The position numbers and the translations under genes are program-made. A DNA stretch of 64,000 bases, from positions 875,781 through 939,780 of the forward strand of contig CAVXEA010000003.1 in the NCBI GenBank assembly GCA_963760685.1, written 5' to 3'. Source of the stretch: an uncultured Acidobacteriota bacterium. Its GTDB lineage: Bacteria; Acidobacteriota; Vicinamibacteria; Fen-336. Shown piece after piece: positions 6,770 to 43,842 of this stretch. Numbering within the stretch: the stretch's first letter is position 1; the number at the start of each line of letters is the position of its first letter. The notes beneath the pieces were generated by a model that was given only the letters and a program-made list of their open reading frames with translations, made no database searches and was not told where the DNA came from.

Positions 6770-6933
6770 AACGGGAGGGCGCGGCCATCGCATTCCGGAG
6801 ACGAACAGTCGCCTCCCGGTTCCGCACACCTCCCCCTCGAAAGCACCCGTAACCTCCTGACGGGCGGACCCAGCATCCCGTCAGGCATGGCACGGCCGTT
6901 GCTGTCTCTCGCCCGATGGGTGGAGGCCGAGCC

Positions 6934-9363: not shown

Positions 9364-9491
9364 CCCATTCCTCCGGGGGCCTGGCCGCCCCGGCACCGCG
9401 GTGGGCTAGAATCGGCGAGTCGGCGAGGGGGGCGGGGCCGCATGGGGAGTGCCGAGCACCGCGGTGACACGCGAGGCAGGACGCCGGGCGG

Positions 9492-10895
9492 ATGAGCTCG
9501 CGCCCGCTCCCCCGGATCGGAGCGCGGCTCGCCCTCCAGGGCGTTCTCGCTCTGAGCTACTTCCTCACGGCCAAGCTCGGCCTGCAGTTGGCCTTCCTCA
9601 ATTCGAGCGCCACGACCGTGTGGCCACCCACCGGGATCGCGATTGCAGGTCTCCTGGTCGGAGGCGCAGGCCTGTGGCCCGCCGTCCTGGTGGGCGCCTT
9701 CCTGGCCAACGTGGCCACGACGGGGCTGGTCCTGAGCTCCGCGGGGATCGCCATCGGCAACACCGCCGAGGCCCTGATCGGCGCCTACCTGGTCAACCGC
9801 TTCGCCGACGGCCGGGATGCGATGAAGCGGGCCCAGAGCATCGTCAAGTTCGCTTTCCTGGCGGGAGTTGTGAGCACGGCCATCAGCGCCACCCTGGGTG
9901 TCACCAGCCTCCTCGCCGGCGGCCTTCTCCGGCCCGGAACCTACGGGGCCGTGTGGCTCACGTGGTGGATGGGCGATCTGGTCGGAGCGGTGATGGTGGC
10001 TCCCGTCGTCCTCACCTGGAGCGCGGAGCCACGCCTCCGGTGGACCCGCGGTCAGGCGTTGGAGGCGGGGGCCCTGTTGCTGGCGCTGGTCATCGGTGGT
10101 CTCGCGATGTTCGGTGGGTTTCTCCGTCTCTACCCCTTGATCTTCCTGGCCCTGCCCCTGCTGCTCTGGCCCGCCTTCCGATTCGGACCGCGCGAAGCGG
10201 CGAGCGCGGCGGTGGTGCTGGCGGGAATCGCCGTGGCGGGGACCCTTCGGGGCCACGGCCCTTTTACGCATGGGTCGCCGAACGAGTCCCTCCTCGAGCT
10301 CCAGTCGTTCATGGGGGTCAATGCCGTGACCGCGGTCGCGGTGGCCGCGGTGGTTCGGGAGAGGAAGCGTCTCGAGGCGAGGCTGGCCCACCTCGCCGAC
10401 CACGATTCCCTCACCGACGTGCTCACGAGGCGGCGTTTCCAGGACGAGCTCGCTCAGCAACTGGCCCACTCCCAACGCTATGGCACGCCGGGAGCCGTGC
10501 TCTTCCTGGACCTGGACAACTTCAAGTCCGTGAACGACCGTCTGGGTCACGGAGTGGGGGACCAGATCCTGATGAACGTGGCGAGATCGCTGCGCGCGCG
10601 GCTGCGGGACAGTGACTTCCTCGGTCGTCTGGGCGGCGACGAGTTCGCCGTGCTCCTGCCCTGGGCCGACGGGGCTCAAGCCCAGGCCGTCGCCGCGCAA
10701 TTGGTGCGGACGATCGCCTCGGAGCGCACCGTCGTCGGCGGAACCGAAATCGCTATCGCGGCGAGCATCGGCATTGCCCTCATCCCCGAGCACGGGCAAA
10801 CCGTGGAAGAGCTGTTGGCCCATGCCGATGCGGCGATGTTCCAGGCCAAGGCCGCCGGGAGCAACCACCTGCAGGTCTACGCCCCGGGGGTATGA
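9492..10895 (+). CDS. Diguanylate cyclase with MASE1 membrane sensor and GGDEF domain
   Basis: Polytopic N-terminus. C-terminus RRRFQDELAQQL ... LFLDLDNFKSVNDRLGHGVGDQIL ... RLGGDEFAVLL. Confidence 0.85.
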   Translation: MSSRPLPRIGARLALQGVLALSYFLTAKLGLQLAFLNSSATTVWPPTGIAIAGLLVGGAGLWPAVLVGAFLANVATTGLVLSSAGIAIGNTAEALIGAYLVNRFADGRDAMKRAQSIVKFAFLAGVVSTAISATLGVTSLLAGGLLRPGTYGAVWLTWWMGDLVGAVMVAPVVLTWSAEPRLRWTRGQALEAGALLLALVIGGLAMFGGFLRLYPLIFLALPLLLWPAFRFGPREAASAAVVLAGIAVAGTLRGHGPFTHGSPNESLLELQSFMGVNAVTAVAVAAVVRERKRLEARLAHLADHDSLTDVLTRRRFQDELAQQLAHSQRYGTPGAVLFLDLDNFKSVNDRLGHGVGDQILMNVARSLRARLRDSDFLGRLGGDEFAVLLPWADGAQAQAVAAQLVRTIASERTVVGGTEIAIAASIGIALIPEHGQTVEELLAHADAAMFQAKAAGSNHLQVYAPGV

Positions 10896-10940: not shown

Positions 10941-12341
10941 TCAGGAGCCGAAGATCTTCTTGAGGACGTCCTTCGCCTTGTCGGTGTTCGTGACCCGATA
11001 GATCAGCGAAACCTTCACCCGCCATTCCTGAATGCGCGCCTTGCCCTGGACCTCGGGCCCGGGCGGGAGGCCGAAGTCCGCGGCTCGACCGACGACGTAG
11101 ACCGGAGTGAGATTCAGCGTGTTGCCAAAGTCGCCCCACCGATACTCCACGGACACGTCGAGCTTGACGCTGTTCGAGTTGAGGCCGGTGCCGGCGGCGA
11201 GGATCCTGTGGTTGGAGTCGTCGCGCACCAGGGGGTCCCGCCCTCCCTGGGGCTCGCGGCTCCAGCCGAAGCGGAGCGGGACGAACTGGCCGTTGACCGG
11301 GAAGAGCTTCTCGATCCCCGCGTTTACCGTGATCGTGTCGCGAGTGGCGCTCAGCTCGGGTGGCAGCCCGTCGAACCCGCTCGTCGGCTGATCGGGTGAG
11401 TTGGGCGAGCCGACGACCAGGAACTGCGTCCACTGGTCGTAGGTGACGTCCACGGCCAGTCGCAAGAGGGGCTTCGGAAGCCAGGCGACACCCACGCCGA
11501 TCGACCGCGGGAAATGGATCTGGGGCCCGTTCTCGAAGCGAGCCTCGAAAGGGTCCGTCAGGCTGGAGAGGGTCGTCTGCGAGACCGCATAGTCGCCGAG
11601 GAGAGCCCCGTGATAGACCATTCCCACCCGGAACTTCGGATAGCCAAGGAGCAGCCCGAGGGTCAGGTTTTCGCCACGGACCGAGTTGGTGATGCGGACG
11701 GAGCTGAAGTCGGTGGGACCGGCGACCCCCGGGTCTTCGCTGGTGTTGGCGCTATCCTCCCAGTCGCCTCGGTAGAGATCCAGGCTGAAACCAAGGGACA
11801 AGCGGCTCGTGAGGCGGGCCGCGCCGGCGAACGACCAAAGGTCGATGCTGCCGTTGGTCTCGCCGTCGAGGCGGACGACGCCCTCGGGCCGAGAGGTCGG
11901 GGAAGACGGAACCCGCCGCATGTCGCCCCGCAAGCGTGCGTTCAACTGGTAGAGACGCCGCCAACCCACCTGGAGGGTGACGGGCTTGCCCGCCACGCCG
12001 AACGGAACGGCGGCGCTCGCGAACTCGATGTCGGTGGTCGTCGCGCTGGACTTCAGGGTCGTGAAGAAGGCGGAGTCGTCGCGGGCCTTGTAGCCCTCGA
12101 GGAAGGTGGTGCGCCCGCTCGTGCTCTGGACGAGGGAGAACTCGGGCTTGCGGAGCTGGGAGAGGCCCGCCGGGTTCCAGGAAGCGGCCGTGCCGTCGTC
12201 CGAGACCGCGATGAAGGCGTTGCCCATTCCGGCCGCCCGCGCGCCCGAGCCCGCACGGTTGAGCGAGGTCTCCTGAGCGCCCGCCGCGGCCGCGGCCGTC
12301 AGGAGGGCCGTGGCCAGCAGCTTCGTGCCCACCCTGCTCAT
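10941..12341 (-). CDS. Outer-membrane beta-barrel transport protein, FadL/OmpP1/TodX-like (OMP1)
   Basis: 467 aa with signal peptide MSRVGTKLLATALLTAAAAAGAQE and AGMGNAFIAVSDDGTAASWNPAGL motif. Start abuts the upstream kinase stop. Confidence 0.7.
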   Translation of the reverse strand: MSRVGTKLLATALLTAAAAAGAQETSLNRAGSGARAAGMGNAFIAVSDDGTAASWNPAGLSQLRKPEFSLVQSTSGRTTFLEGYKARDDSAFFTTLKSSATTTDIEFASAAVPFGVAGKPVTLQVGWRRLYQLNARLRGDMRRVPSSPTSRPEGVVRLDGETNGSIDLWSFAGAARLTSRLSLGFSLDLYRGDWEDSANTSEDPGVAGPTDFSSVRITNSVRGENLTLGLLLGYPKFRVGMVYHGALLGDYAVSQTTLSSLTDPFEARFENGPQIHFPRSIGVGVAWLPKPLLRLAVDVTYDQWTQFLVVGSPNSPDQPTSGFDGLPPELSATRDTITVNAGIEKLFPVNGQFVPLRFGWSREPQGGRDPLVRDDSNHRILAAGTGLNSNSVKLDVSVEYRWGDFGNTLNLTPVYVVGRAADFGLPPGPEVQGKARIQEWRVKVSLIYRVTNTDKAKDVLKKIFGS

Positions 12342-13139
12342 CGCGCCGCCGCGAGGAAGTCGCTGAGCTCGTTCAGCAGCTCTTCGGCGGAGGGCCGCTC
12401 GGAGGGGTCCTTGCTCAGCAGGCGCAGGACGATCCGGTCGAGGTCCTTCGAGAGCGCGAAGTTCAGGGTGGAAGGGACGGGAGGCGGGGTGAGGCAATGG
12501 CTGCGCAGCACCGCGAAGGGCGTGTCGCCGCGAAAGGGCAGGCTGCCGGTCAGCATCTCGAAGAACACCACGCCGAGCGAGTAGAGATCGCTTCCCGGCT
12601 GGCTCGTCGATTCGATGGTCTCGGGGGCGGCGTAGCTCGGGGTGCCGAGGAACGACCCGGTGGTGGTGAGCCCCTCGAGGCGCTGCGCGCGGGCGATCCC
12701 GTAGTCCATCACCTTCAAGCCTCCCGACTGCTCGAGCATGATGTTCGACGGCTTCAGATCGCGGTGGATCACGCCCTTGTTGTGGGCGTAGTCGAGCGCT
12801 TCCGCCACCTGGGAGGTGATCCGCGCCGCCAAGGGCGGATCCAGCCGGCCTTCGAGGTCGAGGCGCGCCCGCAAGGTCTCGCCGTCCACGAGCTCCATGG
12901 ACGAAGTAGGGCGTGTCGCCGACCTGGCCCCGATCGAAGATGCGGATGATGTTGGGGTGGTGCAGGGCGCGGCCGAGCTCCGCCTCGCGCAGGAAGCGCT
13001 CGAGGAAACGGGGATCGTCGAGGAAGCCGGCCAAGGGCCGCTTGAGGGCGAATCGCTCGCCGCGCCGCTCGGCCTCGTAGACGCAGGCCATGCCGCCCTT
13101 GCCGATGCGGCGGATCAACTTGTAGTCGCCGAAGGGCAT
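12338..13139 (-). CDS. Ser/Thr protein kinase, catalytic domain only; interrupted by a +1 frameshift near 12898
   Basis: N-terminal half (IGKGGMACVY ... FALK ... HHPNIIRIFD ... DTPYFV) is in one frame. C-terminal half (MELVDGETL ... HRDLKPSNIM ... SFLGTPSYAAPE) is in the next. The junction reads TTCGTC-C-ATGGAG, a single extra C. Confidence 0.8.
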
Positions 13140-14196
13140 GGGGAAGCTCTCGTCGGTCCCGCGGTCGCTTCCGCTGCCGATCGACGGAGTCGAGCGCGGG
13201 CGGTTGCGGAGGAGCAGTACTCGCCCCGCTCCTGATCCAAAGGACGACGCCGAGGGCCAGGAACGCGACGAGAAGCAGGGCCGCTCCCCATCGCAATCCA
13301 GGATGGGTCTCCAGGGCGGGGGCCGCGGCCGGAGCCGGGGCCGCCGGGCGATAGGGCAGCGCTGCGTCGAACGCCAGCGATGGGCCGGCGAGATCGAGCT
13401 CGCGGATGAGATCGTCACGTCCCTCGGACGAGAGCCGGATTCGGTGGCGGCCCCTGGCCAGGCCCGTGAGCCGCAGTCGCCCGGTCTCCGGATCCGTGCG
13501 CCCGACGGGCGCGTCGTCGAGAAACACCTGCGCGCCAGGAGGGTGGGAGGTGACGTCGATCGACGCCGTCGCGTCGGATGGGGTGGGGCGCGGCATAGCG
13601 CTTTCCCGGCTCGGAGCGGCGGGGTGGGTTGCGGGCGTGGCCGGGATTGGGGGCAGGGGGTGCGTGGCCACGGGCGGGGGCACCGCTTCGGCTGAAGTCG
13701 TGGCCGGCGGCGGCGCGGGCGTGACCTGGGCGGCGACCACCGCCGGTGAAGGGCTTGGCGTCGCGGTTGGAGCCGGAGGCGGCCGCTTCGCGAGGAGAGC
13801 CGCGCGCGCACGCGCCTCGAGGGCGGCTCGTTCCTCCGCGGGCTCGGCCCCGAGCCGCGCGGAGGTCTCCAGCACCTTGAGCGCGTCCTCGTAGGCTTCG
13901 AGGAGCAGGTCGGCCTCGGCCAGCCGAAGGTACGGAAAATAGCGGGGCTCGAAGTTGGTCCCGTAGGTGGGGACGTTCACGCCGGCTTGCGGACGCTTCT
14001 CGATCGCCCGCCGCAGAAGCTCCGCCGCGCGCTGACCCTGGCGGTTGCGCAAGGCGCGCACCCCGTCCGCGTAGAGCTCGTGCCACTCCTGGGCTGAAGC
14101 ACCCACGGGCCAGAGGCAGGCGAGTGCCAGCAAGGCGGCGGCGGCGAGCCTGGTAGAGCGGCCGAGACCGCGTGCACGAATGTCGAAGGGGGCCAC
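13140..14196 (-). CDS. Secreted/membrane protein: signal peptide, TPR-like 'YFPYL' region, Pro/Ala-rich linker, PEGA domain, C-terminal TM helix; possibly fused to the downstream kinase in the true sequence
   Basis: Signal peptide MAPFDIRARGLGRSTRLAAAALLALACLWPVGASA. PEGA domain VTSHPPGAQVFLDDAPVGRTDPETGRLRLTGLARGRHRIRL. TM helix LRWGAALLLVAFLALGVVLWI. No stop before the out-of-frame kinase start, so a hidden indel or a fusion is likely. Confidence 0.55.
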
Positions 14197-14245
14197 TCGG
14201 TCTCCGCTCGGGGCAGGATTATGCCCTACTTGCGACGGAAGGGGC

Positions 14246-16501
14246 TCAGGGCCTGGGCGGAGCGGTCTCCACTCGGAACCGGCTCACACACAGCCGACGT
14301 CGATCCGAAACGTCCCGGTCGAGGTCAGGAAACCGGATCTCGGCGTGGGTGATGCCGGTCTGCAACCGGATCGGCACGCGGAATCTTCGGTACTGGTCGA
14401 CGGGCACCTCGAAGGCGGCGACCGGGGTGTCGACGATGAGCCGCGGTCCGAGACCGCGAGCCCCCGGGCCCGGGATCGCTTCCATCTCGAGAAACCCGTC
14501 GACGTCCCGCGGGGTAAAGAGGAGAGCGCGGGTCCTTGCGCGTCCGAACCACACGCAGCCTCCGGGCCCGGGGGCATCGTCGCTCGGGGTGAGGATCGCC
14601 AGCATCTGCGGACGCGTCCCGTCCCGGACGAGGCCAATGTGTCCACCGAGTCGAAGGACGCCGTCCGTGACCGCGCCACGGAGTCCCGTCACCAGCGGCA
14701 GCACCGCGTCGGGACCCTGGCGAGGGCTCTTGCCGAGCGCGGCCCACAACTCCACGAACCGCCGGCCTGGGTCCGGCGGGATCCACAGGCTCCCCGTCCA
14801 GTCCCCGACGAGTCTTCGCGGATAGGCGAGGAGACCGAGGTAGAGCGGAAGCTGCTGGCTGGTGTCCGGGATGCGATCGGTCGCGAGCAACGTTCCCGAA
14901 GGCAACTCGCGGAAGGCGCGCCGAAGGGTCGGCCACTCGTCGAGAGGCCGGGGGCCACCGGCGAAGGCCTCGAGGCTGCCGCCCAGAACCCCGGCCAGCG
15001 CCCAGTGCACCGGGAGGAGGCCCAGGGGAGCGGCCGCGAGCCACGGGATCCAACGCCCGAGTCTGCGGCCAGCCGCGAGGGCCAGGAGACCCTGAAGCTC
15101 GGCGAGAAGGACGAGAGGATAGGCCCATTGCACGAGCTTGAAGACGCTCCAGGTGTGACCCCTCTCGGCGGTCCAGGGATCGTGAGCCACGAGCGCGAAC
15201 CACGCGATCCCGAGGGCGATACCGAAGGCCGAGGCGGAGAGGACGCCCGCTCGCGGCGCCTTCGCGATCCGGTAGGCGCCGAGGAGCGCCAGCGCGGCAT
15301 ACACGGGGGTCAGCCAGAGGTGGGCCGCTCGAAGGTTCTCGACCCATGGACCGAGGGACTCGGCGGTGAAAAGCCGCGCGCCGAGCGCGAGCTCTGAAAA
15401 GCCGACGGGCGACAGCGGCACGTGGAAACCGACCACCGTGCTCCCGAGAAAGCCGAGACCCCGGATCGGGCTGATTCCCTGGCCCACCAGCAGGATCAGC
15501 GCGACGACCCCGAAGACGCCGAGGCCCGCGGCCAACTGCCGTCGTCGGCCGGGCGCGCGTGAGCGTGCGATGGCCGAGAACAGCCACCATCCGGACGCCG
15601 CCGCGGCGACGGGGAGGAGGGCCAGGTAGGTGCTCGCGAGCCACGCCGTGAGCAAGCCGAGCAACGTGGCCTCGGAGGCGCGCCACCGTTCCTCAGGCAA
15701 GGTGCGAGAGAGCGCGAGGACGATCCCGAGAAGCGCTGAGGTTCCGAGGGTCTGCGCAAGGAACCCCGCGTGGTGCGCCCAGAGGAGTGGTTGGGGTAGT
15801 GCGGCAATGACCAGCCCCAGGGGAGCCAGCAAGCGGACCGGCCACTTCAGCATCCATCGTCCGACCACCAGGATGGCGACCACCGCGAGCACGAGACCGA
15901 AAGTGCTGAGAGCAGGGTAGACGACCAGCGGGGACGACACGCGAGCCATCGCCTGGGTGCCCGCCAGCAGGAACGCCGGGGCCAGCGGTGCCCGGGCGCC
16001 CTGGTAGAGGGTGGGGTAGAACGCGATCGGCTCGTCCGCTCGCCACACGGTCGGCGTCCCGAACGAGTGGTCCTGAAGCCACTGGGCAAACGCGCAGTAG
16101 GTGAGGCTGTCGTTGGCGGTCGCGAAGCTCCCGTTCCTCAGGACCGGCAGGAGGCCGACGAGGGCGACCGCCAGCGCCGGGACGAGGATCGTCGCCCATC
16201 GGCCCCATCCTCCCCGCGGCCGGAGCACATCGAGCTCGCGCCGCCAAGCCACGAGGCCGAGTGCGACTCCATGGGCGATGAGGATGAGCACGGTCGCGGA
16301 CGGGATAAGGCAACCGCGCACCGAGAGCGTCGTGAGCGATACCGTCCACCACGCCGTCCCCACGAGGCTCGACGCCACCGCCTCCAAGGGTCCGAGAGTG
16401 CGCAGCCATCGCGGCCCCAGGAGCGCTACGTGCAGGCGGCCGGTGAGGGTCGTGATCACGGCGAGGAGGACGACGACGGCCAGGCAGGTTGCGGAGGCCA
16501 T
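14246..16501 (-). CDS. Large polytopic integral membrane protein, GT-C-glycosyltransferase-like (paralog A)
   Basis: About 751 aa from MASATCLAVVVLLAV. At least 12 TM helices plus a 250-aa C-terminal soluble domain; motif ERGHTWSVFKLVQWAYP. The annotated ORF is extended upstream by out-of-frame Arg-rich junk. Confidence 0.55.
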   Translation of the reverse strand: MASATCLAVVVLLAVITTLTGRLHVALLGPRWLRTLGPLEAVASSLVGTAWWTVSLTTLSVRGCLIPSATVLILIAHGVALGLVAWRRELDVLRPRGGWGRWATILVPALAVALVGLLPVLRNGSFATANDSLTYCAFAQWLQDHSFGTPTVWRADEPIAFYPTLYQGARAPLAPAFLLAGTQAMARVSSPLVVYPALSTFGLVLAVVAILVVGRWMLKWPVRLLAPLGLVIAALPQPLLWAHHAGFLAQTLGTSALLGIVLALSRTLPEERWRASEATLLGLLTAWLASTYLALLPVAAAASGWWLFSAIARSRAPGRRRQLAAGLGVFGVVALILLVGQGISPIRGLGFLGSTVVGFHVPLSPVGFSELALGARLFTAESLGPWVENLRAAHLWLTPVYAALALLGAYRIAKAPRAGVLSASAFGIALGIAWFALVAHDPWTAERGHTWSVFKLVQWAYPLVLLAELQGLLALAAGRRLGRWIPWLAAAPLGLLPVHWALAGVLGGSLEAFAGGPRPLDEWPTLRRAFRELPSGTLLATDRIPDTSQQLPLYLGLLAYPRRLVGDWTGSLWIPPDPGRRFVELWAALGKSPRQGPDAVLPLVTGLRGAVTDGVLRLGGHIGLVRDGTRPQMLAILTPSDDAPGPGGCVWFGRARTRALLFTPRDVDGFLEMEAIPGPGARGLGPRLIVDTPVAAFEVPVDQYRRFRVPIRLQTGITHAEIRFPDLDRDVSDRRRLCVSRFRVETAPPRP

Positions 16502-16503
16502 GC

Positions 16504-18123
16504 CTACTCGACGTGCTCTCGCGCTTGCGCACAGCGGAGTATTCGCACACCGCGAAGGCGGTAAACCTCGTTGCACCCCGGCGCGAAGTCGGCCCGGGTC
16601 CATCCGGCCATCGACCTCTCGGCGGGACCGACCCATATCCAGTCGATGCGCCAGTGTCGGATCAGGCGCGCGGCCGCTTCGGGCGCGAGACGTCCCTGGA
16701 AGAACGCTTCGGCTTCGGCGGTGCGGCCCGCGTAATCGGGGGTCAGCGTCCAGTGGCCTGCGAAGACGTGAGCGGAGACGTGGCGGGGCAGGCGATTGCC
16801 GCTCTCCGCCGTGGCCAGTACCAGATCGGCCGGCCGGGCCTTGGCCGCAAGCCACTCCCACGCCTGGCGCTCTCCCTCCGAGAACCGGAAGTACGGCGCG
16901 GCCGCATCGCGGAAGCGCATGGCGAGGACGATGGCGCTGCTCGGCAGGGCGAGGGCGAGGATCGCGACCGGAAGCCAGGGACGGGCGCCCCGCGGGCGCT
17001 CGTCCCCGGCGATCACCGGCACGGCCAGCAGGACGAGGGGCCCCATGCTGGTGACCATCAGTTGGGGACTGTACGCGAGGGCGGTGGTGAAACGATTGGC
17101 GTGCACGAGCAGAAGGATCGTCGCGCCCCAGATCAGGAGCAACCGGTCCTCCGGGGTACGCAAGGGCAGGGCGCGATCGCGAACGACGCGCGCGGTGATC
17201 AGCACCACGGAGACGCCGAGCGCCAGAAGGTGTGCGGAGAACGGCACCACCGGCATCTGGCCCTGCTGGGCCAGTGGACGATAGGAAGGCGCGGTCCAGA
17301 TGACCCACACGGGGAGCCAGGCCGGTGCGAGGATCAGCAGCACCAGCGCGCGCTGCCCGAGCCGCCGAAGGTCGAGGACGGACGGCGAGAGGATATGGAA
17401 GGCGGGCAGGACGAGCGTGAACGCCAGGAGCTCGTAGGGTCGCGAGAGGCAGGCCAGGAGGGCCATGGCACCAGCGAGGGCATAGGCCGACGTTCGGCCC
17501 GTTCGCTCGCCACGGACCACGAAGGCGAGAGCGAACAGGACGAGGCCATGCGGGACGGCGAAGTGCGGGTTCTGGAGCATCTGCACGAACGGGTGGAGAC
17601 CGAAGCCTCCGAGATCCAACGGGAGCGAAGGCACGGGGCTGAAGGGCTCGCTGGGCGCCAGGGTGTGGGCGAGCTCGGCGACCCATCCGAATCCGCCGCC
17701 CAGGCCGAAGAGCGCGAGGGCGATCAGCCGGGCCTCGTATCGGGGCAGCACACCGGAGAGGGTCCAGAACCCGAAGACGAGGAGCGCCAGACCCGCGAGG
17801 CGCCAGGCCGTCAGGACCGCGGGATCGCCCAGCCCGCGCATCGCCCAGCCGACGACGAGCCACTCCAGGTTGAAGAGGATCGGTCGATGGGCTTCGGGTG
17901 CGTAGCGGTTCTCGAACAGGAGCCGCCCTTCGGCCGACTGGCGGGCGAAGGAGAGATAGGCGTGGAGGTCGTCGGAATGAGCGATCAAGCCGTCATAGTG
18001 ATGGCCGGCACGCGCCGACCGACGTCCATTCGCGTAGGGGAGCTCGGTGACGCCCGCGAGGAAGGCTAGCGCGAGAAGGGGCGCCAGGAATCGCCGGCGC
18101 CCGGAGCTACCTTGGCCCACCAT
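16504..18123 (-). CDS. Polytopic membrane protein, putative GT-C/YfhO-like glycosyltransferase
   Basis: 539 aa, multi-TM, C-terminal domain SAHVFAGHWTLTPDYAGRTAEAEAFF. Stop lies 2 nt from the start of the downstream gene. Confidence 0.5.
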   Translation of the reverse strand: MVGQGSSGRRRFLAPLLALAFLAGVTELPYANGRRSARAGHHYDGLIAHSDDLHAYLSFARQSAEGRLLFENRYAPEAHRPILFNLEWLVVGWAMRGLGDPAVLTAWRLAGLALLVFGFWTLSGVLPRYEARLIALALFGLGGGFGWVAELAHTLAPSEPFSPVPSLPLDLGGFGLHPFVQMLQNPHFAVPHGLVLFALAFVVRGERTGRTSAYALAGAMALLACLSRPYELLAFTLVLPAFHILSPSVLDLRRLGQRALVLLILAPAWLPVWVIWTAPSYRPLAQQGQMPVVPFSAHLLALGVSVVLITARVVRDRALPLRTPEDRLLLIWGATILLLVHANRFTTALAYSPQLMVTSMGPLVLLAVPVIAGDERPRGARPWLPVAILALALPSSAIVLAMRFRDAAAPYFRFSEGERQAWEWLAAKARPADLVLATAESGNRLPRHVSAHVFAGHWTLTPDYAGRTAEAEAFFQGRLAPEAAARLIRHWRIDWIWVGPAERSMAGWTRADFAPGCNEVYRLRGVRILRCAQAREHVE

Positions 18124-20434
18124 CGTCCGCCAGCAGGGTCAGGGACAGGGCGCACAGTCGGTGGGGGTCAGAGGCGGCCTCGGCGGGGAACGAGATCTGC
18201 ACCCGGCTGGTGCCTCGTCCCAGGAGCACCGGGAGATCGACGCGCGGGTACTCGCTCACCAGGACCTCGTGCGACTCTCCACCGCTGGTCACCCCGAGGC
18301 TCAGGGCCTGGGCCGCCGCGCCGCGGCCCGGGCTCGCCGTCAGTCGGAGCGTGGCCTTCATCTCGCGCGGACTGTACGCCAGGACGGTGGTGCGGGCGCG
18401 GCCGAGCCAGACGCATCCTCCCGGGCCCGGCTGGTCGTCGCTCGGCTGGAGGACGGCCAGGACCTGGGCGGTCGTTGGCTCTTTGACGAGGCCGATGCCG
18501 CCGCCCAGGCGAACGACCGCCTCCGTGACGAAGCCTCGGAGGCCGGTGACTACGGGGGCGATGGCTTCGCGCTCTGCGACCCGTTCGCCATCGGCAAGGA
18601 AGCTCCACAGACGCTCCGCGTCGTTTGCGGGATTCCGGGGGATCCAAAGGGCTCCGTTCCAATCGCCGGAGAGGTGCTTAGGGTAGGTGAGCAGACCCAC
18701 ATACGTCGGGAGAAAGGGCGTGGTCGCGAGCGGCGTGTCCGCGGCGAGATAGTGCACCGCGGCCGAGCCGAGGAAGCGCCTTCGGATCCCACCCCAGGCC
18801 TCGAGGGGCCGCGTCGAGCCGACGAACGCCTCGAGCTCCGTGCCCAGCCGGCCGCCCAGCGACCAGTACACCGGAGCCAGCGTGATCGGTACGAAGAGCA
18901 TCGCGGGTCCGAGCCACCGACCCCAGGGATGACGTCGCAAGCTCGAGGCGCCCTGCACCAGGGTCAACACGACGGGCGGATAGGACCACTGGGTGAGCTT
19001 GAAGAGGTTCCAGGTGTGTCCCCTCTCCCCGGTCCACGGGTCTCGGGCCATGAGGGCATACCAGGCGAAGGCCATGCCCAGCACGGTCAGGCAGCCCAGA
19101 AGCGGTCCACTGCGAGAGTCCCTGGCCGACACCCGGAGCCCTCGCACGATCAGCCAGAGATAGAGAGGAACGAGCCAGAGATGCCCGGACCGCAGGCGTT
19201 CGACGACCGGCCCCAGGCGGAACGGAGTCCAGAACCAGGCGCCCAGGGTCGCCTGCACGTAGCCCCAGGGGGAGAGATCGACATGGCTGCCCACGCGGAT
19301 GCCTCGAAGGAAATCAAACGCCCCCGGCAGGCTCAGGCCCTGAGCGATGACGAGCACGCTCCCCGTCGCCATGGCCAAGGCCACCCACAACGCCAAGCGC
19401 CTGACGTCGCCCCGAAGGCGAAGCGCGCGGTCGACCAACCACCACGCTCCAGCCCCACCCAGAAGCACCAGGAAGGGCGGATAGGTGCTGGCGAGGCCCG
19501 CCGCCAGGATGCCCAGAAGCCCGGCTTCTCGCGGTTGCCACCGGCGCTTTGCGCGGACCTGCGAAAGCTGGAGCAGCGCCGCGAGCAAGAGCGGCGTGGC
19601 GAAGGTCTGGGCCAGGAAGCCCATGTGGTGGGCCCAGGCCAAAGGCTGGAAGAGCGCGGCGAGCCCGATGCCCACCCAGAGTGGCCACCGAAGCGGCCAG
19701 CGCAGGGCGCGTCGCCCGAAGGCGAGGAGGCTGCCGACGGCCAAGACCAGTCCCCAGGCGCTGACCGCTGGATAGACGAGCACCGGAGACGTGGCGCGGG
19801 CCATCGCCTGAGCGCCCGCCAGAAGGAAGGCCGGAGCCAGCGGATAGCCAGCGCCCTCGTAGATCGCCGCGTAGTGAGCGAGCGGCTGGTCCGGGGGATA
19901 GACCGCAGTGCCCCGGAAAGAGTGGTCCTGGTACCACTGGGCCAGCGAGCAGTAGAGCAGCGAATCGTTCTCGGTCGCGAACGTCGCGTGGCGGAGGACC
20001 GGAAGCAGGGCGACGAGACCGGTCAGGACCGCAGGGACCAGCAAGGTCAGCCATGCGCGAGCGTGACCCACCGGGCGAAAGGCCTCCTGTTTCCCGCGCG
20101 CCAGGACGAGCATGCCCGCCACGGCATGGACCAGCAGGCCGGCCATGACGGAAGAGGGAGCGCTCAATCCCGCGGTCGACCCCGCGGTCAGCAAGACCAT
20201 CCAGAAGACCGTGCCGAGCACCGCGGACACCTGGGCTTCGAATGGTCCGAAGGCCAGGAGCCGCCTCGGTCCGGCCAGGGCGATGTAGAGACGTCCGGCG
20301 AGCGTGCAGACGAGGGCGAGGCCTCCGAGAAGCGCCAGACTCCTCAACTCGCCGGTTCGGCGCGGCGTACCGCGGGCCCGGGTCGGCGCGGCGCCACCCT
20401 CACCTTCGCGCTGGGCGTCGCGTCGCCGAACCAC
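18107..20434 (-). CDS. Large polytopic membrane protein, GT-C-like (paralog B of 14246-16501)
   Basis: Collinear with paralog A (ERGHTWNLFKLTQWSYP; FATENDSLLYCSLAQW versus FATANDSLTYCAFAQW). True start is uncertain and may be a non-ATG codon between 20350 and 20512. Confidence 0.55.
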   Translation of the reverse strand: MVRRRDAQREGEGGAAPTRARGTPRRTGELRSLALLGGLALVCTLAGRLYIALAGPRRLLAFGPFEAQVSAVLGTVFWMVLLTAGSTAGLSAPSSVMAGLLVHAVAGMLVLARGKQEAFRPVGHARAWLTLLVPAVLTGLVALLPVLRHATFATENDSLLYCSLAQWYQDHSFRGTAVYPPDQPLAHYAAIYEGAGYPLAPAFLLAGAQAMARATSPVLVYPAVSAWGLVLAVGSLLAFGRRALRWPLRWPLWVGIGLAALFQPLAWAHHMGFLAQTFATPLLLAALLQLSQVRAKRRWQPREAGLLGILAAGLASTYPPFLVLLGGAGAWWLVDRALRLRGDVRRLALWVALAMATGSVLVIAQGLSLPGAFDFLRGIRVGSHVDLSPWGYVQATLGAWFWTPFRLGPVVERLRSGHLWLVPLYLWLIVRGLRVSARDSRSGPLLGCLTVLGMAFAWYALMARDPWTGERGHTWNLFKLTQWSYPPVVLTLVQGASSLRRHPWGRWLGPAMLFVPITLAPVYWSLGGRLGTELEAFVGSTRPLEAWGGIRRRFLGSAAVHYLAADTPLATTPFLPTYVGLLTYPKHLSGDWNGALWIPRNPANDAERLWSFLADGERVAEREAIAPVVTGLRGFVTEAVVRLGGGIGLVKEPTTAQVLAVLQPSDDQPGPGGCVWLGRARTTVLAYSPREMKATLRLTASPGRGAAAQALSLGVTSGGESHEVLVSEYPRVDLPVLLGRGTSRVQISFPAEAASDPHRLCALSLTLLADDGGPR

Positions 20435-21480
20435 TCCGCTCCTTCCACCAGCATCCGCCACTGGAAGACGTACTCCCCGGGCTCCGCGGGGGCGGCGAGC
20501 GGGACCTTCCACTCCTTCGAGGCGCCCGGCCGGATCTCTTCGGACGGCTCCAGGTCCACCCGCTGTGCCTCACGTGGCTCATCCCCGACGAGGCCCAGCC
20601 TGAACTGCACGTCGGGCTCGCTGCGCCACGTGCTCGCGCCCACGTTTTCCAGGGTCAAGGTCACCACCTTCCGCTCCCGGGGGGCCAGGGAAAGGAGCGC
20701 CGGCATCGGCCGGCCCTCGATGTCCATCCCCACGAAACGGGTGCGGTTGCAGGTGTTGGTCAGGTTGGGCGCGAGCTTCCTGGGGGCCTTCCGGTTGCAG
20801 CGGAACCGCTTCTTGAGCGCCGGCGGATTCTTCTGGAGGTCGTCGTCCTGGTAGTACTCCCACTGGATCCAACCCCACTCCCGGCTGTAGTAGAACTTCT
20901 CGTAGCTGTTGACCCGCTGCCGGTCGGGGATGCCGGTGCGCAGGCTGTAGTCGTAGCGCAGCACGATCACGTCCTGGATGCCCAGATCGCCCCCGGCGTC
21001 GAAACGTGGAATCCGTGCCTCGAGCACGGTCTTGTACCCGAGCCGGAGCATGCGCCCCGGACGGCAGTCTCGCCGGTAGACGAGGTGCGTCTGGTTGGCG
21101 GCCATGTCGATCTCCTCGCCCACCCGCATCCGCCGCTTCATCCAGAGGCCGGGGACGAAGGCCTGGGGTTTGAGGCGGTTGCCGTCGGCCGCGTCGCTCC
21201 AGCTGCGGTCTTCCTTCAAGTAGATGTATTCGTCGTCCCAGGAGTAGTACTCGTAGGTGTTCGGATGCCACTTGACGTAGTAGGCCGCGTTTCCTTCGAC
21301 GGTCAGGCTCAGGGGATGCGAGCCGGCGTTCGGGTTGCCGGGCTCGTCGGTGTCGCCGAGGAGCGCGGTCTCGGGGTGTTGCGACAGGAAGAAGGGGAGC
21401 GTGTCGATCGCCTCTCCTCTCGGAGCCCCGCCGCAGGACACGGCCCCCGCTGACACCAGGACGAGGAAGAGGAGTCTCAA
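20344..21480 (-). CDS. Lipoprotein with C-terminal Ig-like (CARDB/NEW3-like) domain
   Basis: TTG start overlaps the upstream stop (TTGA). Lipobox LVLVSAGAVSC. Tyr/Trp-rich middle region (YYSWDDEYIYLKEDRSW; WGWIQWEYYQDDD) and C-terminal beta-sandwich-like segment. Confidence 0.5.
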   Translation of the reverse strand: MRLLFLVLVSAGAVSCGGAPRGEAIDTLPFFLSQHPETALLGDTDEPGNPNAGSHPLSLTVEGNAAYYVKWHPNTYEYYSWDDEYIYLKEDRSWSDAADGNRLKPQAFVPGLWMKRRMRVGEEIDMAANQTHLVYRRDCRPGRMLRLGYKTVLEARIPRFDAGGDLGIQDVIVLRYDYSLRTGIPDRQRVNSYEKFYYSREWGWIQWEYYQDDDLQKNPPALKKRFRCNRKAPRKLAPNLTNTCNRTRFVGMDIEGRPMPALLSLAPRERKVVTLTLENVGASTWRSEPDVQFRLGLVGDEPREAQRVDLEPSEEIRPGASKEWKVPLAAPAEPGEYVFQWRMLVEGAEWFGDATPSAKVRVAPRRPGPAVRRAEPAS

Positions 21481-23606
21481 GGCTCCGACTCGCCGGCCGG
21501 GTAGACGGCCAGCCGTTCCACGCGCCAGGCGACGAGCCGGCGGCGGGCGGGCGCGTGCTCTTCTCCGGCCTCCACCGTCCAGCCGTAGCTGAATCGAACC
21601 TCGTTGAGCCCAGGCTTCCAGGCCGGAGCACCGATCTCCAGGGTCTGCGTCTGCAGGCCCCCGGCAAGCGTCCACGAGCCGATCGCACGCCCGTTCACCT
21701 TCACGGCCACCGTCTGGGGAAGGCCCGCAGGATGAGGGCTCGGCTCCCCGCGAAAGCTGAGCCGGTAGTCCCGCGGGCCGACCAGCGACACGAGCAGGGT
21801 CGACTCGCTTCCTTCCGACCAGCGGAAGGGAGTTCCGTCGGGCGCGGACTCCGCGTACGACCAGCCGCGGCCGAGGAAGGGTTCGTCCGTCGGGGTGCCC
21901 ACGGCCACGATCACTTTCGTGGTGGGCTCGCGCCCGTAGACCAGGTCGAAGAGGTCCGGCCGGACGCCGTAGGTCCAGGCGAAGATCCACGGGGCCGGCG
22001 CGGCGGGCAGATGACCCAGTTGTCGGTAGACGCGGTGCGCGGCCCGCGACGCCGCCTCCGAGAAGGCGAAGGTAGCGTCGCGCGGGATCTCTCCCCGCCG
22101 CACCTGTCCTGCGAGAAGGAGGTTCCAGGCGGCGAGGCCCCCGAGACCGAGGAGCCCCAGCACGGCCGGGCGCGCCATGAGCTGCGTCGCCACCGCGCAG
22201 AGCCCGAGCACGAAGAGCGCGAACGCCTCGGTGAGGCGCCGGCTGCCGAACGACCAGGCCCCGCTCCAGGAGTAGCAGGCGGCCAGGAGGTAGACCCCGA
22301 AGGCCAGGGCCAGCAACAGCGACGCGGCCAGGCCACGGTCTCGCCGCGCGAGGAGCAACAGCCCCAGGGTTCCCAGGTACGCCACGGGCGTCCACGACAA
22401 GAGCCCGTTTCTCGAGGAGAACAGCACCTCGCCCACGAGCGGGTGGGCCCAGTTCTGGAAGGTGAAGGCGACGAGGTTCGACTCGCCGAGCAGCGAAGCG
22501 TGGCGCGAGGTGAGGTTGGCGTAGAGGAGGGGCAGGAGGGTGACCCCGAGGGTCAGGAGCGCCGCCCCCGCCGTGGTCACCAGCACGCGTCGGCTTTGCA
22601 GCACGCGCGGCCAGGGCGTCCGCCAGAGAAGGCCGGCCGCGGTGACGGCCGGACAGAGCAGGAGGTAGGCATCGTACCTCTGGGTCGAGACCAGCACGCC
22701 GCCGGCCACGGAGAGAAGGAGCCATCGCTTGCGACGACTCGGGTCGTCGCGCACGCGCAGCCACAGCCAGAGAAAGACGGCCACCGCCGCGGACGCCGTG
22801 GCGTGTGACATGCCCGGCTCGAACACGCTGTACCAGAGCAGAGGCGTGGCCAGCCAGGCGGCCGCAGCGCAGGTCGCGCAGAGCAGGGGAGAGAAGAACC
22901 GGCGGGCGATCCGACAGGCCAGGATCACGGCCACGTAGGCCCAGACCAGGCTGCCCAGGCACACGGCGTTGACGTAGGGAGGGCCGTAGCCGTCCGCGGC
23001 CAGGGTGGAGCCGAAAGGCCGCGCGGCGAGGACGAGAGCGTGTGCGAGGAGGAAGAACGGCGCCCAGAGGATCGCCGGTCCCGGCTCGACGGTGGGGTTC
23101 GGGGTGCGCCCGAGCCGGCGGCCCTCTTCGGCCCAGTACTGATAGCGCTCGGGAATGAACTCGGCGAACTCGTTGGTGAGATCGAGGTCGTGGTCGATCA
23201 CCACGGACCGGAGCTGAACGAAGAGCAAGGGGCCATCGACCTCGAGCCGGCCCCCGCGGGAGCTCAGGACGACGAGGAGAGCGAGGAACGTACCCGCCAA
23301 CAGCAGGTCGGGTGGCCGTAGCCGGCCGAGCCAGGAGCCGGGGCGGAATCCCGGGGAGGGCAATCCCCCCGCGCCTTGGTTGCGCCAGACCCGCAGGGCG
23401 AGAAGGGCGAAGGCGGCGAGGACGGCGAAGAGGAGGAGGCCGCCCCGCCCCCCGAAGGCCGAGATGACGAGTGCGATGAGGGGCGCGAGGAGGCGGGTTC
23501 GAGCGCCGAAGGCGACGATGACGAAAGCGGAGAAGGCCAGGAGGGCGAGGAGGAGCTCGATCAGGGCGTCGGCGAGAGCTGGCCGCTGCAGGATGTGCTG
23601 GCCCAC
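21477..23606 (-). CDS. Large polytopic membrane protein, GT-C-like, with C-terminal periplasmic domain
   Basis: About 709 aa from GTG at 23606, with GGAG RBS 9 nt upstream. Multi-TM, then GRGWSYAESAPDGTPFRWSEGSESTLLVSLVGPRDYRLSFRG ... domain. Confidence 0.55.
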   Translation of the reverse strand: MGQHILQRPALADALIELLLALLAFSAFVIVAFGARTRLLAPLIALVISAFGGRGGLLLFAVLAAFALLALRVWRNQGAGGLPSPGFRPGSWLGRLRPPDLLLAGTFLALLVVLSSRGGRLEVDGPLLFVQLRSVVIDHDLDLTNEFAEFIPERYQYWAEEGRRLGRTPNPTVEPGPAILWAPFFLLAHALVLAARPFGSTLAADGYGPPYVNAVCLGSLVWAYVAVILACRIARRFFSPLLCATCAAAAWLATPLLWYSVFEPGMSHATASAAVAVFLWLWLRVRDDPSRRKRWLLLSVAGGVLVSTQRYDAYLLLCPAVTAAGLLWRTPWPRVLQSRRVLVTTAGAALLTLGVTLLPLLYANLTSRHASLLGESNLVAFTFQNWAHPLVGEVLFSSRNGLLSWTPVAYLGTLGLLLLARRDRGLAASLLLALAFGVYLLAACYSWSGAWSFGSRRLTEAFALFVLGLCAVATQLMARPAVLGLLGLGGLAAWNLLLAGQVRRGEIPRDATFAFSEAASRAAHRVYRQLGHLPAAPAPWIFAWTYGVRPDLFDLVYGREPTTKVIVAVGTPTDEPFLGRGWSYAESAPDGTPFRWSEGSESTLLVSLVGPRDYRLSFRGEPSPHPAGLPQTVAVKVNGRAIGSWTLAGGLQTQTLEIGAPAWKPGLNEVRFSYGWTVEAGEEHAPARRRLVAWRVERLAVYPAGESEP

Positions 23607-23655
23607 GTCCTGCTTCTCCAGCGAAATGGCGGTGCTCCCTTCCGAAGACGCTCGG

Positions 23656-23661
23656 ATTATA
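23656..23661 (-). promoter_or_regulatory. Perfect TATAAT (-10) hexamer 50 nt upstream of the GTG of gene 21477-23606, overlapping the stop of the XRE-cupin gene
   Basis: Minus-strand TATAAT seen directly; the -35 element is weak. Confidence 0.25.
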
Positions 23662-24310
23662 CCTTCCGCTTCTGTTCGGTCTGTTCCGCCGCCGCCGTGA
23701 GCGAAAGGCTGGAGCGGCGCGCAGGGGCGCCTTCGGGCCCGCGCGTGAGGAGCACGACCGAATAGCCCACCGCGGTCACGCGGCCCGGGTTCGTGTACGA
23801 ATGGCGCTGGTCCCCACGAAACACCAGGACGTCGCCGGGGCCGACGCGCCACTGCTCGCCGGCCACCGCCAGCGTCACCTCGCCGGACTCGCAGGTGAAG
23901 TACTCGCGGGTTCCGGGCATGTGAGGGACGCCCGGCACGCGTCCCCGGGGTGGGATCTCCATGCGGTCGAGGACCATTCCGGGAATCGGATCGGGAAGGA
24001 GCTGGCGGATCATCCCGTCGCCCTGCCGGCGATCGCGCAAGCTCGCCCTCGGGTAGATTCGGCCGGTGGTTCGCGGGGCTGCGATCAGCTCCTCGATCGA
24101 CACCTGAAGCGCGGTGGCGACCTTGTCGAGCACCACCAGGGTGGGGTTGGCGGAGCCGGTTTCGAGGTGCCCCCAGGTGGCGCGAGGGATGGCCGCCAGC
24201 TTCGCCATCTGTCCCTGGGTCTGCCCGCGCGCTTCGCGGAGGTGGCGCATGTTCTCGGCCAGTCGTGCGGAGAGCTTCTCGGCCATGCCCAGAGGATAGA
24301 GCTGTGCCAA
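23657..24310 (-). CDS. XRE-family transcriptional regulator with C-terminal cupin domain
   Basis: HTH segment LREARGQTQGQMAKLAAIPRATWGHLETG, and cupin segment GDVLVFRGDQRHSYTNPG. Confidence 0.8.
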   Translation of the reverse strand: MAQLYPLGMAEKLSARLAENMRHLREARGQTQGQMAKLAAIPRATWGHLETGSANPTLVVLDKVATALQVSIEELIAAPRTTGRIYPRASLRDRRQGDGMIRQLLPDPIPGMVLDRMEIPPRGRVPGVPHMPGTREYFTCESGEVTLAVAGEQWRVGPGDVLVFRGDQRHSYTNPGRVTAVGYSVVLLTRGPEGAPARRSSLSLTAAAEQTEQKRKV

Positions 24311-24374
24311 TGAATTGGCAATGATGTTGAAGGATTGTCAGGCGGGGCCCATGGTGGAGGGCGGAGGTAGGGGA

Positions 24375-25105
24375 ATGGGCATCGACGGGCGAAGCGTACT
24401 GGTGACGGGAGGGAGCCGAGGGCTCGGGGCGGCGCTGGGCCGGGAGCTGGCGCGCCGCGGGGGGCGCGTCGTGCTCGTGGCCCGCGAGGGAGGTCCCCTG
24501 CGGGAGGTGGTGGCCGAGATCTGGAGCAGCGGGAGGAGAGGCGCATGCCCTGGCCGCGGACGTCGGCGATCCCCTGGCCGTCCATCCGCTGATCGGTGCC
24601 GCCAGCGCCCTCGTGGGGCCCCTCGACGTGGTCGTCCACAATGCCAGCACTCTGGGCGCGTCGCCCCTCCGCGATCTGGCCGACACCGAGGGCCAGGACT
24701 TCGCGCGCGCCCTGGAGGTGAACCTTCTCGGACCCTTCCGCATCACGAAGGCCGTGGTGGGATCGATGCTGTTGCGGCGTCGGGGGCTCGTGGTGAGCGT
24801 CACGTCGGACGCGGGGGTCGTCGCCTACCCGCGCTGGGGGGCCTACGGTGTCTCCAAGGCCGCGCTCGACCACCTGATGCGGACCTGGGCCGAGGAGCTG
24901 CGCGAGAGCGGCGTGCGCTTCCTGAGCGTCGACCCCGGCGAGATGGACACGCGCATGCACAAGGAGGCGGTTCCGGAGGCCGACCCGGCGACGCTCGCCT
25001 CCCCGGACGAGGTCGCGTCGCGAATGGCCGACCTGATCGAGGCAGTCGGAATCGTGGCCGAGCGGGGCCCGGGTCGAGCTCGCGTCGTTGCGGGCCGCGG
25101 CATGA
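24375..25105 (+). CDS. SDR-family short-chain dehydrogenase; frameshifted near 24525 and probably again near 25090
   Basis: N-terminus VLVTGGSRGLGAALGRELARRGGRVVLVAR. After a frame change: EAHALAADVGDPLAVHPLIGAASALVGPLDVVVHNAS ... YGVSKAALDHL. An ATGA stop/start overlap with queA is visible only in a third frame. Confidence 0.7.
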
Positions 25106-40387: not shown

Positions 40388-40438
40388 GGTTTCTATGCGC
40401 GCTAGTCTACGCTCACCGGGGCCAGACGGGCCACCCCG

Positions 40439-41989: not shown

Positions 41990-43842
<1,853 letters not shown>

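Follow-up and report, generated by a model that had tools for sequence, protein, structure and literature searches.

What does a soil bacterium do with four large polytopic membrane proteins that are encoded side by side, together with a secreted protein and behind a regulator? We addressed this question for a locus in a Vicinamibacteria-like genome of a soil Acidobacteriota bacterium, within a 64-kb stretch of DNA that is referred to here as the window. Acidobacteriota are abundant in soil, and to our knowledge little has been learned about the chemistry of their envelopes and exopolysaccharides. Some of the most important envelope glycans are made or modified by GT-C enzymes; examples are mycobacterial arabinan, the modifications of lipid A, and N- and O-linked glycans of proteins. 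With moderate confidence, we read the genes as an operon for four integral-membrane glycosyltransferases of the GT-C fold and a partner protein, B; the operon follows the regulator gene R and would serve extracytoplasmic glycosylation of an envelope glycan. The enzymes of the operon probably decorate this glycan on the outer side of the membrane.

The six genes are co-directional, in the order R-A-B-C-D-E (Table 1). The initial annotation had placed A, B, D and E exactly as we found them, while two starts were revised. The start given earlier for C (20434) was rejected because it would create a 91-nt overlap with B, against the statement in the same annotation that the genes overlap or abut by 0-17 nt. 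Read from TTG 20347, C shares the 4-nt overlap TTGA with the stop codon of B, identical to the A/B junction, and independent gene calls also gave a product of 746 aa. For R, the earlier start at TTG 24310 was replaced by ATG 24286, which is most likely correct since both an exact 209-aa gene call and the start of the ortholog in a related locus (L001) agree with it. The 4-nt start/stop codon overlaps at A/B and B/C are consistent with translational coupling; C and D overlap by 17 nt, D and E are separated by 2 nt, and a 50-nt gap lies between R and A.

Table 1. Genes of the locus, its downstream neighbours and candidate promoter elements
Feature	Coordinates in the window	Strand	Description
R	23657..24286	-	209 aa; XRE-type HTH and cupin transcription regulator; corrected start
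A	21477..23606	-	709 aa; polytopic membrane protein; GTG start
B	20344..21480	-	378 aa; predicted secreted, probably a lipoprotein
C	18107..20347	-	746 aa; GT-C-fold membrane protein; corrected start TTG 20347
D	16504..18123	-	539 aa; GT-C-fold membrane protein, between C and E
E	14246..16501	-	751 aa; GT-C-fold membrane protein
PEGA-domain Ser/Thr kinase	~12353-14196	-	downstream neighbour; +1 insertions at ~13206 and 12901
FadL/Toluene_X-like outer-membrane protein	10941-12341	-	downstream neighbour; Toluene_X E 1.6e-5
Sigma-70-like promoter TTGCCA-17-TATCCT	24293..24321	-	putative; ahead of R
Perfect TATAAT	23656..23661	-	overlaps the R stop codon, 50 nt upstream of the A GTG

Pfam and NCBIfam searches with the six operon proteins named only the domains of R and the Ig domain of B. 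In R, Pfam identified HTH_31 (1.3e-11, aa 17-75) and Cupin_2 (1e-11, aa 116-183; numbering of the 217-aa call), an N-terminal Cro/C1-type HTH and a C-terminal cupin that bear out the earlier description of an XRE-cupin regulator. Orthologs with 88-94% identity lie upstream of A in two related loci, L001 and L016. The putative promoter ahead of R is the sole promoter-like site in positions 12000-24700, where 0.3 are expected. Its predicted -10 element ends only 7 nt before ATG 24286, a distance at which the R mRNA may lack a leader. The TATAAT over the R stop codon that had been pointed out in the initial annotation is indeed there, and it is the single TATAAT on both strands of the window (0.33 expected). 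An internal promoter may have its -10 element here; no recognisable -35 was found for it.

Searches of PDB sequences with profiles of the membrane proteins gave nothing significant for any family, and only fold comparison worked. The AlphaFold2 models of E (pLDDT 86) and D (pLDDT 89) were confident, and in both the multi-helix membrane module superposed on solved GT-C enzymes. ArnT was a strong structural match to both D and E, although these matches do not discriminate between subfamilies, with ALG12, STT3B, AftA and ArnT falling within 2 Z units of one another. The four proteins fall into three distantly related sequence families, A, C/E and D, which profile comparison linked: hhalign aligned the A-family and C/E-family profiles with a probability of 79% (E 1.6e-5, 590 columns), and the D and C/E profiles with a probability of 66% over 417 columns. 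Together, the E and D models, the paralogy of C and E, and the homologs of A with these profile alignments upheld the earlier GT-C-fold reading of the four membrane proteins.

A search for an acidic motif in the first loop had also been suggested, and an Asp proved to be conserved there in all three families. N130-D131 of E, V123-D124 of A and D51-D52 of D were placed in the same columns by hhalign; D131 and D124 are invariant and D52 is at least 90% conserved in the D family, and their placement at the membrane and the active-site groove is deduced from alignments and secondary structure. In A, D124 sits in the loop that follows the canonical TM1, a helix that in A, C and E appears to be preceded by about three extra N-terminal helices. 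Each of the three families also has invariant Asp, His and Arg residues in its loops. In E, the positions that are invariant or nearly so are N130-D131, H243-H244 and D441-P-W...G-H-x-W-x-x-F-K-x-x-Q-W. We assign the GT-C fold with confidence to all three families, and the candidate catalytic residues are clear. The locus appears to add new sequence families to a known superfamily, two of them invisible to Pfam and NCBIfam and the third at the edge of PMT_2. YfhO proteins, which the four resemble in size, in their many TM helices and in a C-terminal extracytoplasmic domain, were also considered, and the YfhO profile (PF09586) matched none of A, C, D and E at E <= 1 and none of 25 C/E or 20 D family members at E <= 0.1.

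The link of A to PMT_2 comes from its homologs. Pfam gave no match for A itself at E <= 1, and the gathering threshold of PMT_2 (PF13231, 26.1 bits) was not reached. PF13231 was matched by 6 of 30 A homologs, and P0054 (48% identical to A, 32.7 bits) and P0069 (32.9 bits) both scored above the gathering threshold. Because these homologs pass the threshold whereas A does not, we consider A a divergent relative of PMT_2 and not a detectable member, and through its homologs it would be a PMT_2/ArnT-like GT-C with a C-terminal beta-sandwich. This C-terminus weakly resembles the galactose-binding domain of beta-galactosidase.

C and E are 46% identical over their full length and share the motif ERGHTW[SN][VL]FKL[VT]QW[AS]YP, as had been noted earlier, so that their paralogy is secure. 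The predicted structure of E ends in a CBM35/CBM6-like beta-sandwich, and C, its paralog, has a CBM-like C-terminal domain as well. The family comprises ~520 cluster representatives among 1.84 billion proteins, and all 11 of the loci recovered from reference genomes belonged to Acidobacteriota or Vicinamibacteria MAGs. No family was named by Pfam or NCBIfam for ten distant representatives. Distant C/E homologs sit inside polysaccharide clusters with Wzy_C, GT2, GT4, DegT, FdtA and epimerase genes. The DUF6311-like partner of distant C/E genes had no BLASTP similarity to D, and hhalign matched its family weakly to A (45% probability) and to D (28%); in the literature on DUF6311 and on Vicinamibacteria glycosyltransferases we found nothing relevant.

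D belongs to a second unnamed family; judged from its model, its overall build is like that of OST enzymes and AftA, ending in a predicted alpha/beta domain of the AglB/STT3 type. Unlike STT3/AglB/PglB (GT66), it has no match to an OST sequence family, and the WWDYG motif is absent from its C-terminal domain; T-A-E-S-G occupies the position in the sole sequence alignment at hand, which is weak (E 0.42). Distant D homologs have YfhO-type GT-Cs as tandem neighbours or lie close to Kdo genes, one of them beside Kdo-synthesis and LapB genes.

B is, by its signal peptide, a secreted protein. The signal peptide ends in AVSC; set against the lipobox [LVI][ASTVI][GAS]C, the B sequence MRLLFLVLVSAGAVSC has the Cys (position 16), whereas position -3 is an Ala; the L016 ortholog reads AALTC, and lipidation of B is plausible. 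The Ig-like C-terminus described earlier was borne out by a match to N_BRCA1_IG, the NBR1-type Ig-like domain PF16158, at aa 264-353 (33.2 bits, E 8e-8; gathering threshold 28 bits), which is on record for B orthologs too. ILRUN (6vhi) matched B weakly. No solved relative was found for the Tyr/Trp-rich N-terminal domain, and chromodomain matches to it were rejected as noise (E > 1). A 27%-identical copy of this domain is fused to an M23 peptidase, only a hint that it may bind cell wall or glycan. B adjoins A in all six loci that hold a close B homolog.

Conservation of the operon in relatives had been expected from the initial annotation, and this held for the core R-A-B-C(+E), which recurs, but not for D, which is not conserved and by this comparison is a lineage-specific insertion between C and E. 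Ka/Ks values of 0.19-0.30 against an 88%-identical relative demonstrated that the operon is under purifying selection. The initial annotation had suggested selection from the lack of frameshifts in the operon; flanking genes do carry frameshifts, but with ~3 in ~10 kb of flanks, none in 10 kb is only marginally unlikely, and we set this weak argument aside in favour of Ka/Ks.

From these features we infer the activity, donor, acceptor, role of B and regulation as follows. All characterised GT-C enzymes that we know of act on polyprenyl-phosphate (or diphosphate) sugars. By analogy, such a carrier would be flipped across the cytoplasmic membrane, and each enzyme would move its sugar from the outer face to a periplasmic acceptor. 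The Asp with which the first extracytoplasmic loop begins (D124 in A, D52 in D, D131 in C/E) may be the catalytic or acceptor-activating residue, and A, C and E would bind the glycan acceptor through their C-terminal CBM-like beta-sandwich domains, as in EmbC, AftD and GT136. The enzymes would not form a fixed set, since D is not conserved in the operon. With several of them, a single envelope polysaccharide or glycolipid could receive more than one kind of sugar or linkage, with B as a candidate periplasmic glycan-binding or scaffolding partner of A, and the cupin domain of R might couple expression to a small-molecule signal.

Known systems provide partial parallels. The mycobacterial EmbA/B/C, AftA, AftB and AftD likewise join a GT-C module to extracytoplasmic carbohydrate-binding domains, and the embCAB operon also holds several paralogous GT-Cs in tandem. 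In contrast to these, the GT-Cs described here have no Pfam or NCBIfam family match and are much smaller than Emb or AftD, the host is a Gram-negative-type Acidobacteriota, and no decaprenyl-phosphoarabinose pathway genes were seen. ArnT and other PMT_2 proteins (PF13231; CAZy GT83/GT39-type) share the acidic residue after TM1, whereas A, C and E add a C-terminal beta-sandwich and Ara4N genes are absent. A further parallel to our reading, with a polysaccharide modified outside the cytoplasm by a GT-C with a C-terminal CBM, comes from three-component periplasmic glycosylation of the GT136 type and from O-antigen glucosylation of the Gtr type; GT136 (Citrobacter youngae ORF12) glycosylates a finished polysaccharide in the periplasm with a polyprenyl-phosphate sugar donor (PMC11127046). 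GT136/Gtr systems encode a polyprenyl-P-sugar synthase and a flippase beside the GT-C, whereas here the operon has four GT-Cs and a secreted Ig-domain protein instead. No such synthase (GtrB/DPM1-like GT2) or flippase (GtrA/MATE) was found in the operon, its flanks or the surveyed genes of the window, or within 10 kb in L001 or L016. Nor did the flanks or other surveyed window genes hold nucleotide-sugar or lipid-carrier genes, in agreement with the initial annotation. These absences count against the proposed mechanism, as does the fact that A itself has no Pfam match.

A bolder form of the proposal, to which we give only a small chance, is an Acidobacteriota-specific envelope-glycan machine of A-B plus C/E, made up solely of periplasm-facing GT-Cs of new families. 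B would serve either as a subunit that the machine requires or as primer or acceptor for the growing glycan, the donor genes would be unlinked, R would sense a metabolite, and the whole would form a self-contained extracytoplasmic assembly line instead of decorating the product of a Wzy or ABC pathway.

The affinity of the A family to PMT_2, which is named after protein mannosyltransferases, raises the alternative of protein O-glycosylation, in which A would initiate on secreted proteins or lipoproteins, possibly B, and C, D and E would extend the glycan in the periplasm. The constant neighbourhood of A and B, their putative translational coupling and the resemblance of D to oligosaccharyltransferases, C-terminal domain included, would fit this alternative. 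However, PMT_2 takes in ArnT-like lipid and glycan transferases too, D lacks the sequon-binding WWDYG, and B, as read from its sequence, lacks the Ser/Thr/Pro-rich linker typical of bacterial O-mannosylated lipoproteins. With CBM-like domains on A, C and E pointing to glycan acceptors, and distant C/E relatives housed in polysaccharide loci, we consider protein O-glycosylation unlikely.

The same ArnT-like members of PMT_2, the dedicated regulator directly upstream and the distant D homolog adjoining Kdo-synthesis and LapB genes could instead indicate enzymes that work like ArnT or the rhizobial RgtA-D and decorate a glycolipid of the envelope, be it lipid A, LPS core or some other lipid-anchored glycan, only under certain conditions, with R switching them on upon an environmental signal. 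This reading appears doubtful, as no genes for Ara4N- or GalA-type donor synthesis lie nearby, the CBM-like domains are a better fit for polymeric acceptors, and the structural matches do not separate the GT-C subfamilies. Finally, the large polytopic proteins and the lack of an adjacent donor pathway might suggest polymer export or another transporter, as the initial annotation had allowed, or non-catalytic GT-C-like scaffolds, but this is very improbable and we found no support for export, since no transporter fold ranked above 19th for E or 22nd for D in the structure comparison, which does not point to an unrelated transporter family, and transporter matches in Foldseek had probabilities of at most 0.28. 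Also against it, the loops carry invariant Asp, His and Arg, and the operon has no ABC, Wzx, OPX or PCP partner genes.

Glycosylation of an envelope glycan by GT-Cs, our preferred reading, overturns nothing known. If activity is shown, new CAZy GT families would probably be set up for the three families, and the locus offers concrete genes and point mutations for testing. As for the surroundings, the PEGA kinase and FadL/Toluene_X-like genes also follow the operon in L001 and L016, and whether their products are part of the system is uncertain. At the other end, the SDR gene beside the operon has its frame shifted near 24481-24533.

The stretch at 14246-24310 carries six co-directional genes, all on the minus strand, that encode in order an XRE-cupin regulator (R), a large membrane protein (A), a secreted Ig-domain protein (B) and three further large membrane proteins (C, D and E). 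The operon in the initial annotation was confirmed after two start corrections, its coordinates being right for A, B, D and E but not for the starts of C (20434) and R (24310). A start of C at 20434 was rejected; its overlap with B would be 91 nt. The B/C junction reads GCG AGT TGA / TTG AGG AGT and forms a TTGA overlap like that at A/B. Independent gene calls in two other assemblies and a protein collection also give C 746 aa, and the C ortholog in L001, the locus of an 88%-identical relative, is 745 aa long and overlaps B in the same way. The corrected start of R matches an exact 209-aa gene call and agrees with the start of the L001 ortholog. Ka/Ks was computed against L001 for R, A, B, C and E, and the operon genes are real and under selection.

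Genes of the operon and other features in the window, with Ka/Ks relative to L001
Feature	Coordinates	Strand	Length	Junction with next gene	Ka/Ks
R	start ATG 24286 (corrected)	minus	209 aa	50-nt gap	0.19
A	21477-23606	minus	709 aa	4-nt overlap	0.21
B	20344-21480	minus	378 aa	4-nt overlap	0.21
C	start TTG 20347 (corrected)	minus	746 aa	17-nt overlap	0.30
D	16504-18123	minus	539 aa	2-nt gap	
E	14246-16501	minus	751 aa		0.29
Sigma-70-like promoter match	24321-24293				
PEGA-domain Ser/Thr kinase	12353-14196				
Short-chain dehydrogenase	24321-25044				
GH3 glycosidase	41990-43488				
PAS/GAF histidine kinase	37900-40438				

Pfam and NCBIfam gave no name to A, C, D or E. Word-seeded homology searches of 5.8 billion proteins yielded no more than 29 relatives for E, 45 for A and 22 for D, and the few named ones all came from Vicinamibacteria or Acidobacteria MAGs. 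C and E are 46% identical over their full length. Used as a profile in an exhaustive search of 1.84 billion proteins, the C/E alignment retrieved 520 cluster representatives at E <= 1e-3; ten sampled representatives gave no family, save for one sub-threshold methyltransferase match. AlphaFold2 models built from these alignments were confident for both E (pLDDT 85.9, pTM 0.89) and D (pLDDT 89.0, pTM 0.89), and Foldseek matched E to AftA (1e-5) and PglB (2e-5), followed by AftD, STT3 and ArnT. At the level of fold, A, C, D and E belong to the GT-C glycosyltransferase superfamily, which supports the earlier GT-C reading. The export system offered as its alternative found no support, and a transporter or non-catalytic role is highly improbable; the fold searches argue against such a role.

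Profile-profile alignment matched the A and C/E families across 590 columns, the C-terminal beta domain among them (79% probability, E 1.6e-5), and the C/E and D families across 417 columns (66% probability). In these alignments N130-D131 of E, V123-D124 of A and D51-D52 of D share columns, shortly past the helix equivalent to canonical TM1; D131 of E and D124 of A are invariant and D52 of D is at least 90% conserved. Solved GT-C enzymes have a proposed catalytic Asp at the equivalent position, after TM1 (PMC11127046). Judging from the E model and the profile alignments, A, C and E seem to possess about three additional N-terminal helices ahead of canonical TM1.

Comparison with named families placed A as a sub-threshold relative of PMT_2: PF13231 matches occurred in 6 of 30 A-family members, and two members, one of them 48% identical to A, exceeded the gathering threshold. 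D is similar in build to OST and AftA but lacks the oligosaccharyltransferase WWDYG, which is replaced by T-A-E-S-G in the sole sequence alignment at hand (E 0.42). C and E resemble the 'GT-C plus CBM' enzymes Emb, AftD and GT136 in architecture but lie outside all their sequence families; the CBM-type extra domains of EmbC, AftD and GT136 bind glycan acceptors (PMC11127046). The Gtr/GT136 'three-component' systems require an adjacent synthase and flippase, and the operon falls outside that definition. Although the GT-C superfamily itself is well known, the sequence families and the unusual GT-C-only operon with a secreted Ig-domain partner are new here, and a literature search for these families found no mention of them.

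Gene order in related loci was R-A-B-C-E in L001, R-A-B-C in L016 (A 74% identical), A-B-C in L019, E-A-B in L018, and A-B followed by a convergent GH113 gene in L020, as against R-A-B-C-D-E in the window. The A-B pair is invariant and usually has a C/E-type gene attached; R lies upstream in every locus where that region is present. L001 and L016 are flanked alike: two SDRs, a chalcone-isomerase-like gene and QueA border the operon at one end, the PEGA kinase and a FadL-like protein at the other. D is an insertion into the operon; close homologs of D, at 76% and 52% identity, are solitary in unrelated contexts. The 76%-identical homolog (L027, 471-2132) stands alone, flanked by UPF0175 antitoxin-like and PcfJ-like genes, suggesting that D-type genes move between contexts. 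Distant D homologs occur in tandem with YfhO-type GT-Cs, as in L026 (6148-12037), where the genes of three large membrane proteins run consecutively and overlap at their ends, or, as in L025 (4626-9602), beside genes for Kdo synthesis and LapB. Tandem arrays of differing GT-Cs seem to recur.

Acidobacteriota MAGs are the source of the distant C/E homologs (31-37% identical), none of which has A, B, D or R nearby. In 12 of 13 such loci (L002-L015; e.g. L003 8241-10004) the C/E gene comes right after, and often overlaps by 4 nt, the gene of a conserved ~580-aa membrane protein. The DUF6311 signal of this protein is weak, and a Y-x-G-D following its first helix is conserved; it may represent another GT-C-like partner family. 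Several distant C/E homologs lie within Wzy-type polysaccharide clusters together with Wzy_C, GT2, GT4, Glycos_transf_4, DegT, FdtA, epimerases and methyltransferases, and a 59%-identical A homolog adjoins Wzy_C, RmlC-like and methyltransferase genes.

The signal peptide of B ends in AVSC, plausibly a non-canonical lipobox. Its Tyr/Trp-rich N-terminal domain contains four invariant Cys, and Pfam, NCBIfam and a solved-structure search returned no recognisable relative of it; its C-terminal domain is NBR1-type Ig-like (PF16158, E 8e-8). The two domains occur in the opposite order in 45-47%-identical homologs (L021, 371-1255; L022, 1037-1921), a distant homolog (L023) consists of the Tyr/Trp-rich domain alone, and in L024 (4453-5778; 27% identity) this domain is fused to an M23 peptidase with no Ig partner. 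Judged by the reversed order and the M23 fusion, it acts as an independent extracytoplasmic module. No protein of the locus is better conserved than R, whose orthologs share 88-94% identity; some of these carry the automatic JGI name 'regulator of sulfur utilization'.

GT-C enzymes use polyprenyl-phosphate- or polyprenyl-diphosphate-linked sugars on the extracytoplasmic membrane face, with the active site between the first loop and the membrane module. Arguing from such established knowledge of the superfamily, the reading with most support is one in which A, C and E, and D in this lineage, would each take a sugar off a lipid carrier and add it to an envelope glycan on the periplasmic side, with B as the putative periplasmic partner of A and R as the presumed switch; fold, conserved residues, synteny and selection are shown here, and the remainder we infer. 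No donor-pathway genes were encoded near the operon among the surveyed window genes or in the L001 and L016 flanks. A glycan acceptor is supported by the distant family members in polysaccharide clusters; protein O-glycosylation with B as the target is unlikely, and ArnT-like decoration of a glycolipid is equally doubtful. This uncharacterised Acidobacteriota gene set now has a clear, testable annotation; the locus would not surprise a glycobiologist.

Compared with its L001 ortholog, the PEGA kinase gene immediately downstream of E contains two single-base insertions (~13206 and ~12901), neither within a long homopolymer, which spread its reading frame over three frames; either the gene is a pseudogene or the assembly is in error. 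The short-chain dehydrogenase gene divergent from R has its frame shifted near 24481-24533. The initial annotation had taken the frameshift-free operon as a sign of selection. Window genes outside the operon do carry frameshifts, but this is weak evidence for selection, since several related long-read MAG loci show similar split hits. Frameshifts are common in the window, and the GH3 glycosidase and PAS/GAF histidine kinase genes look split into overlapping ORFs.

A TATAAT overlaps the R stop codon, as first described, and is the only one on both strands of the window (0.33 expected); no -35 element was found with it. A sigma-70-like TTGCCA-17-TATCCT, the only such match within 12000-24700, ends 7 nt ahead of the corrected R ATG, so the R mRNA may be leaderless. 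At 6853-10895 local gene content differs from that of the close relative L001: of the two MacB-like permease genes there the window has one, and it is without the chalcone-isomerase-like gene. Its MASE1-GGDEF gene and remaining MacB-like gene share 95-98% identity with those of L001.
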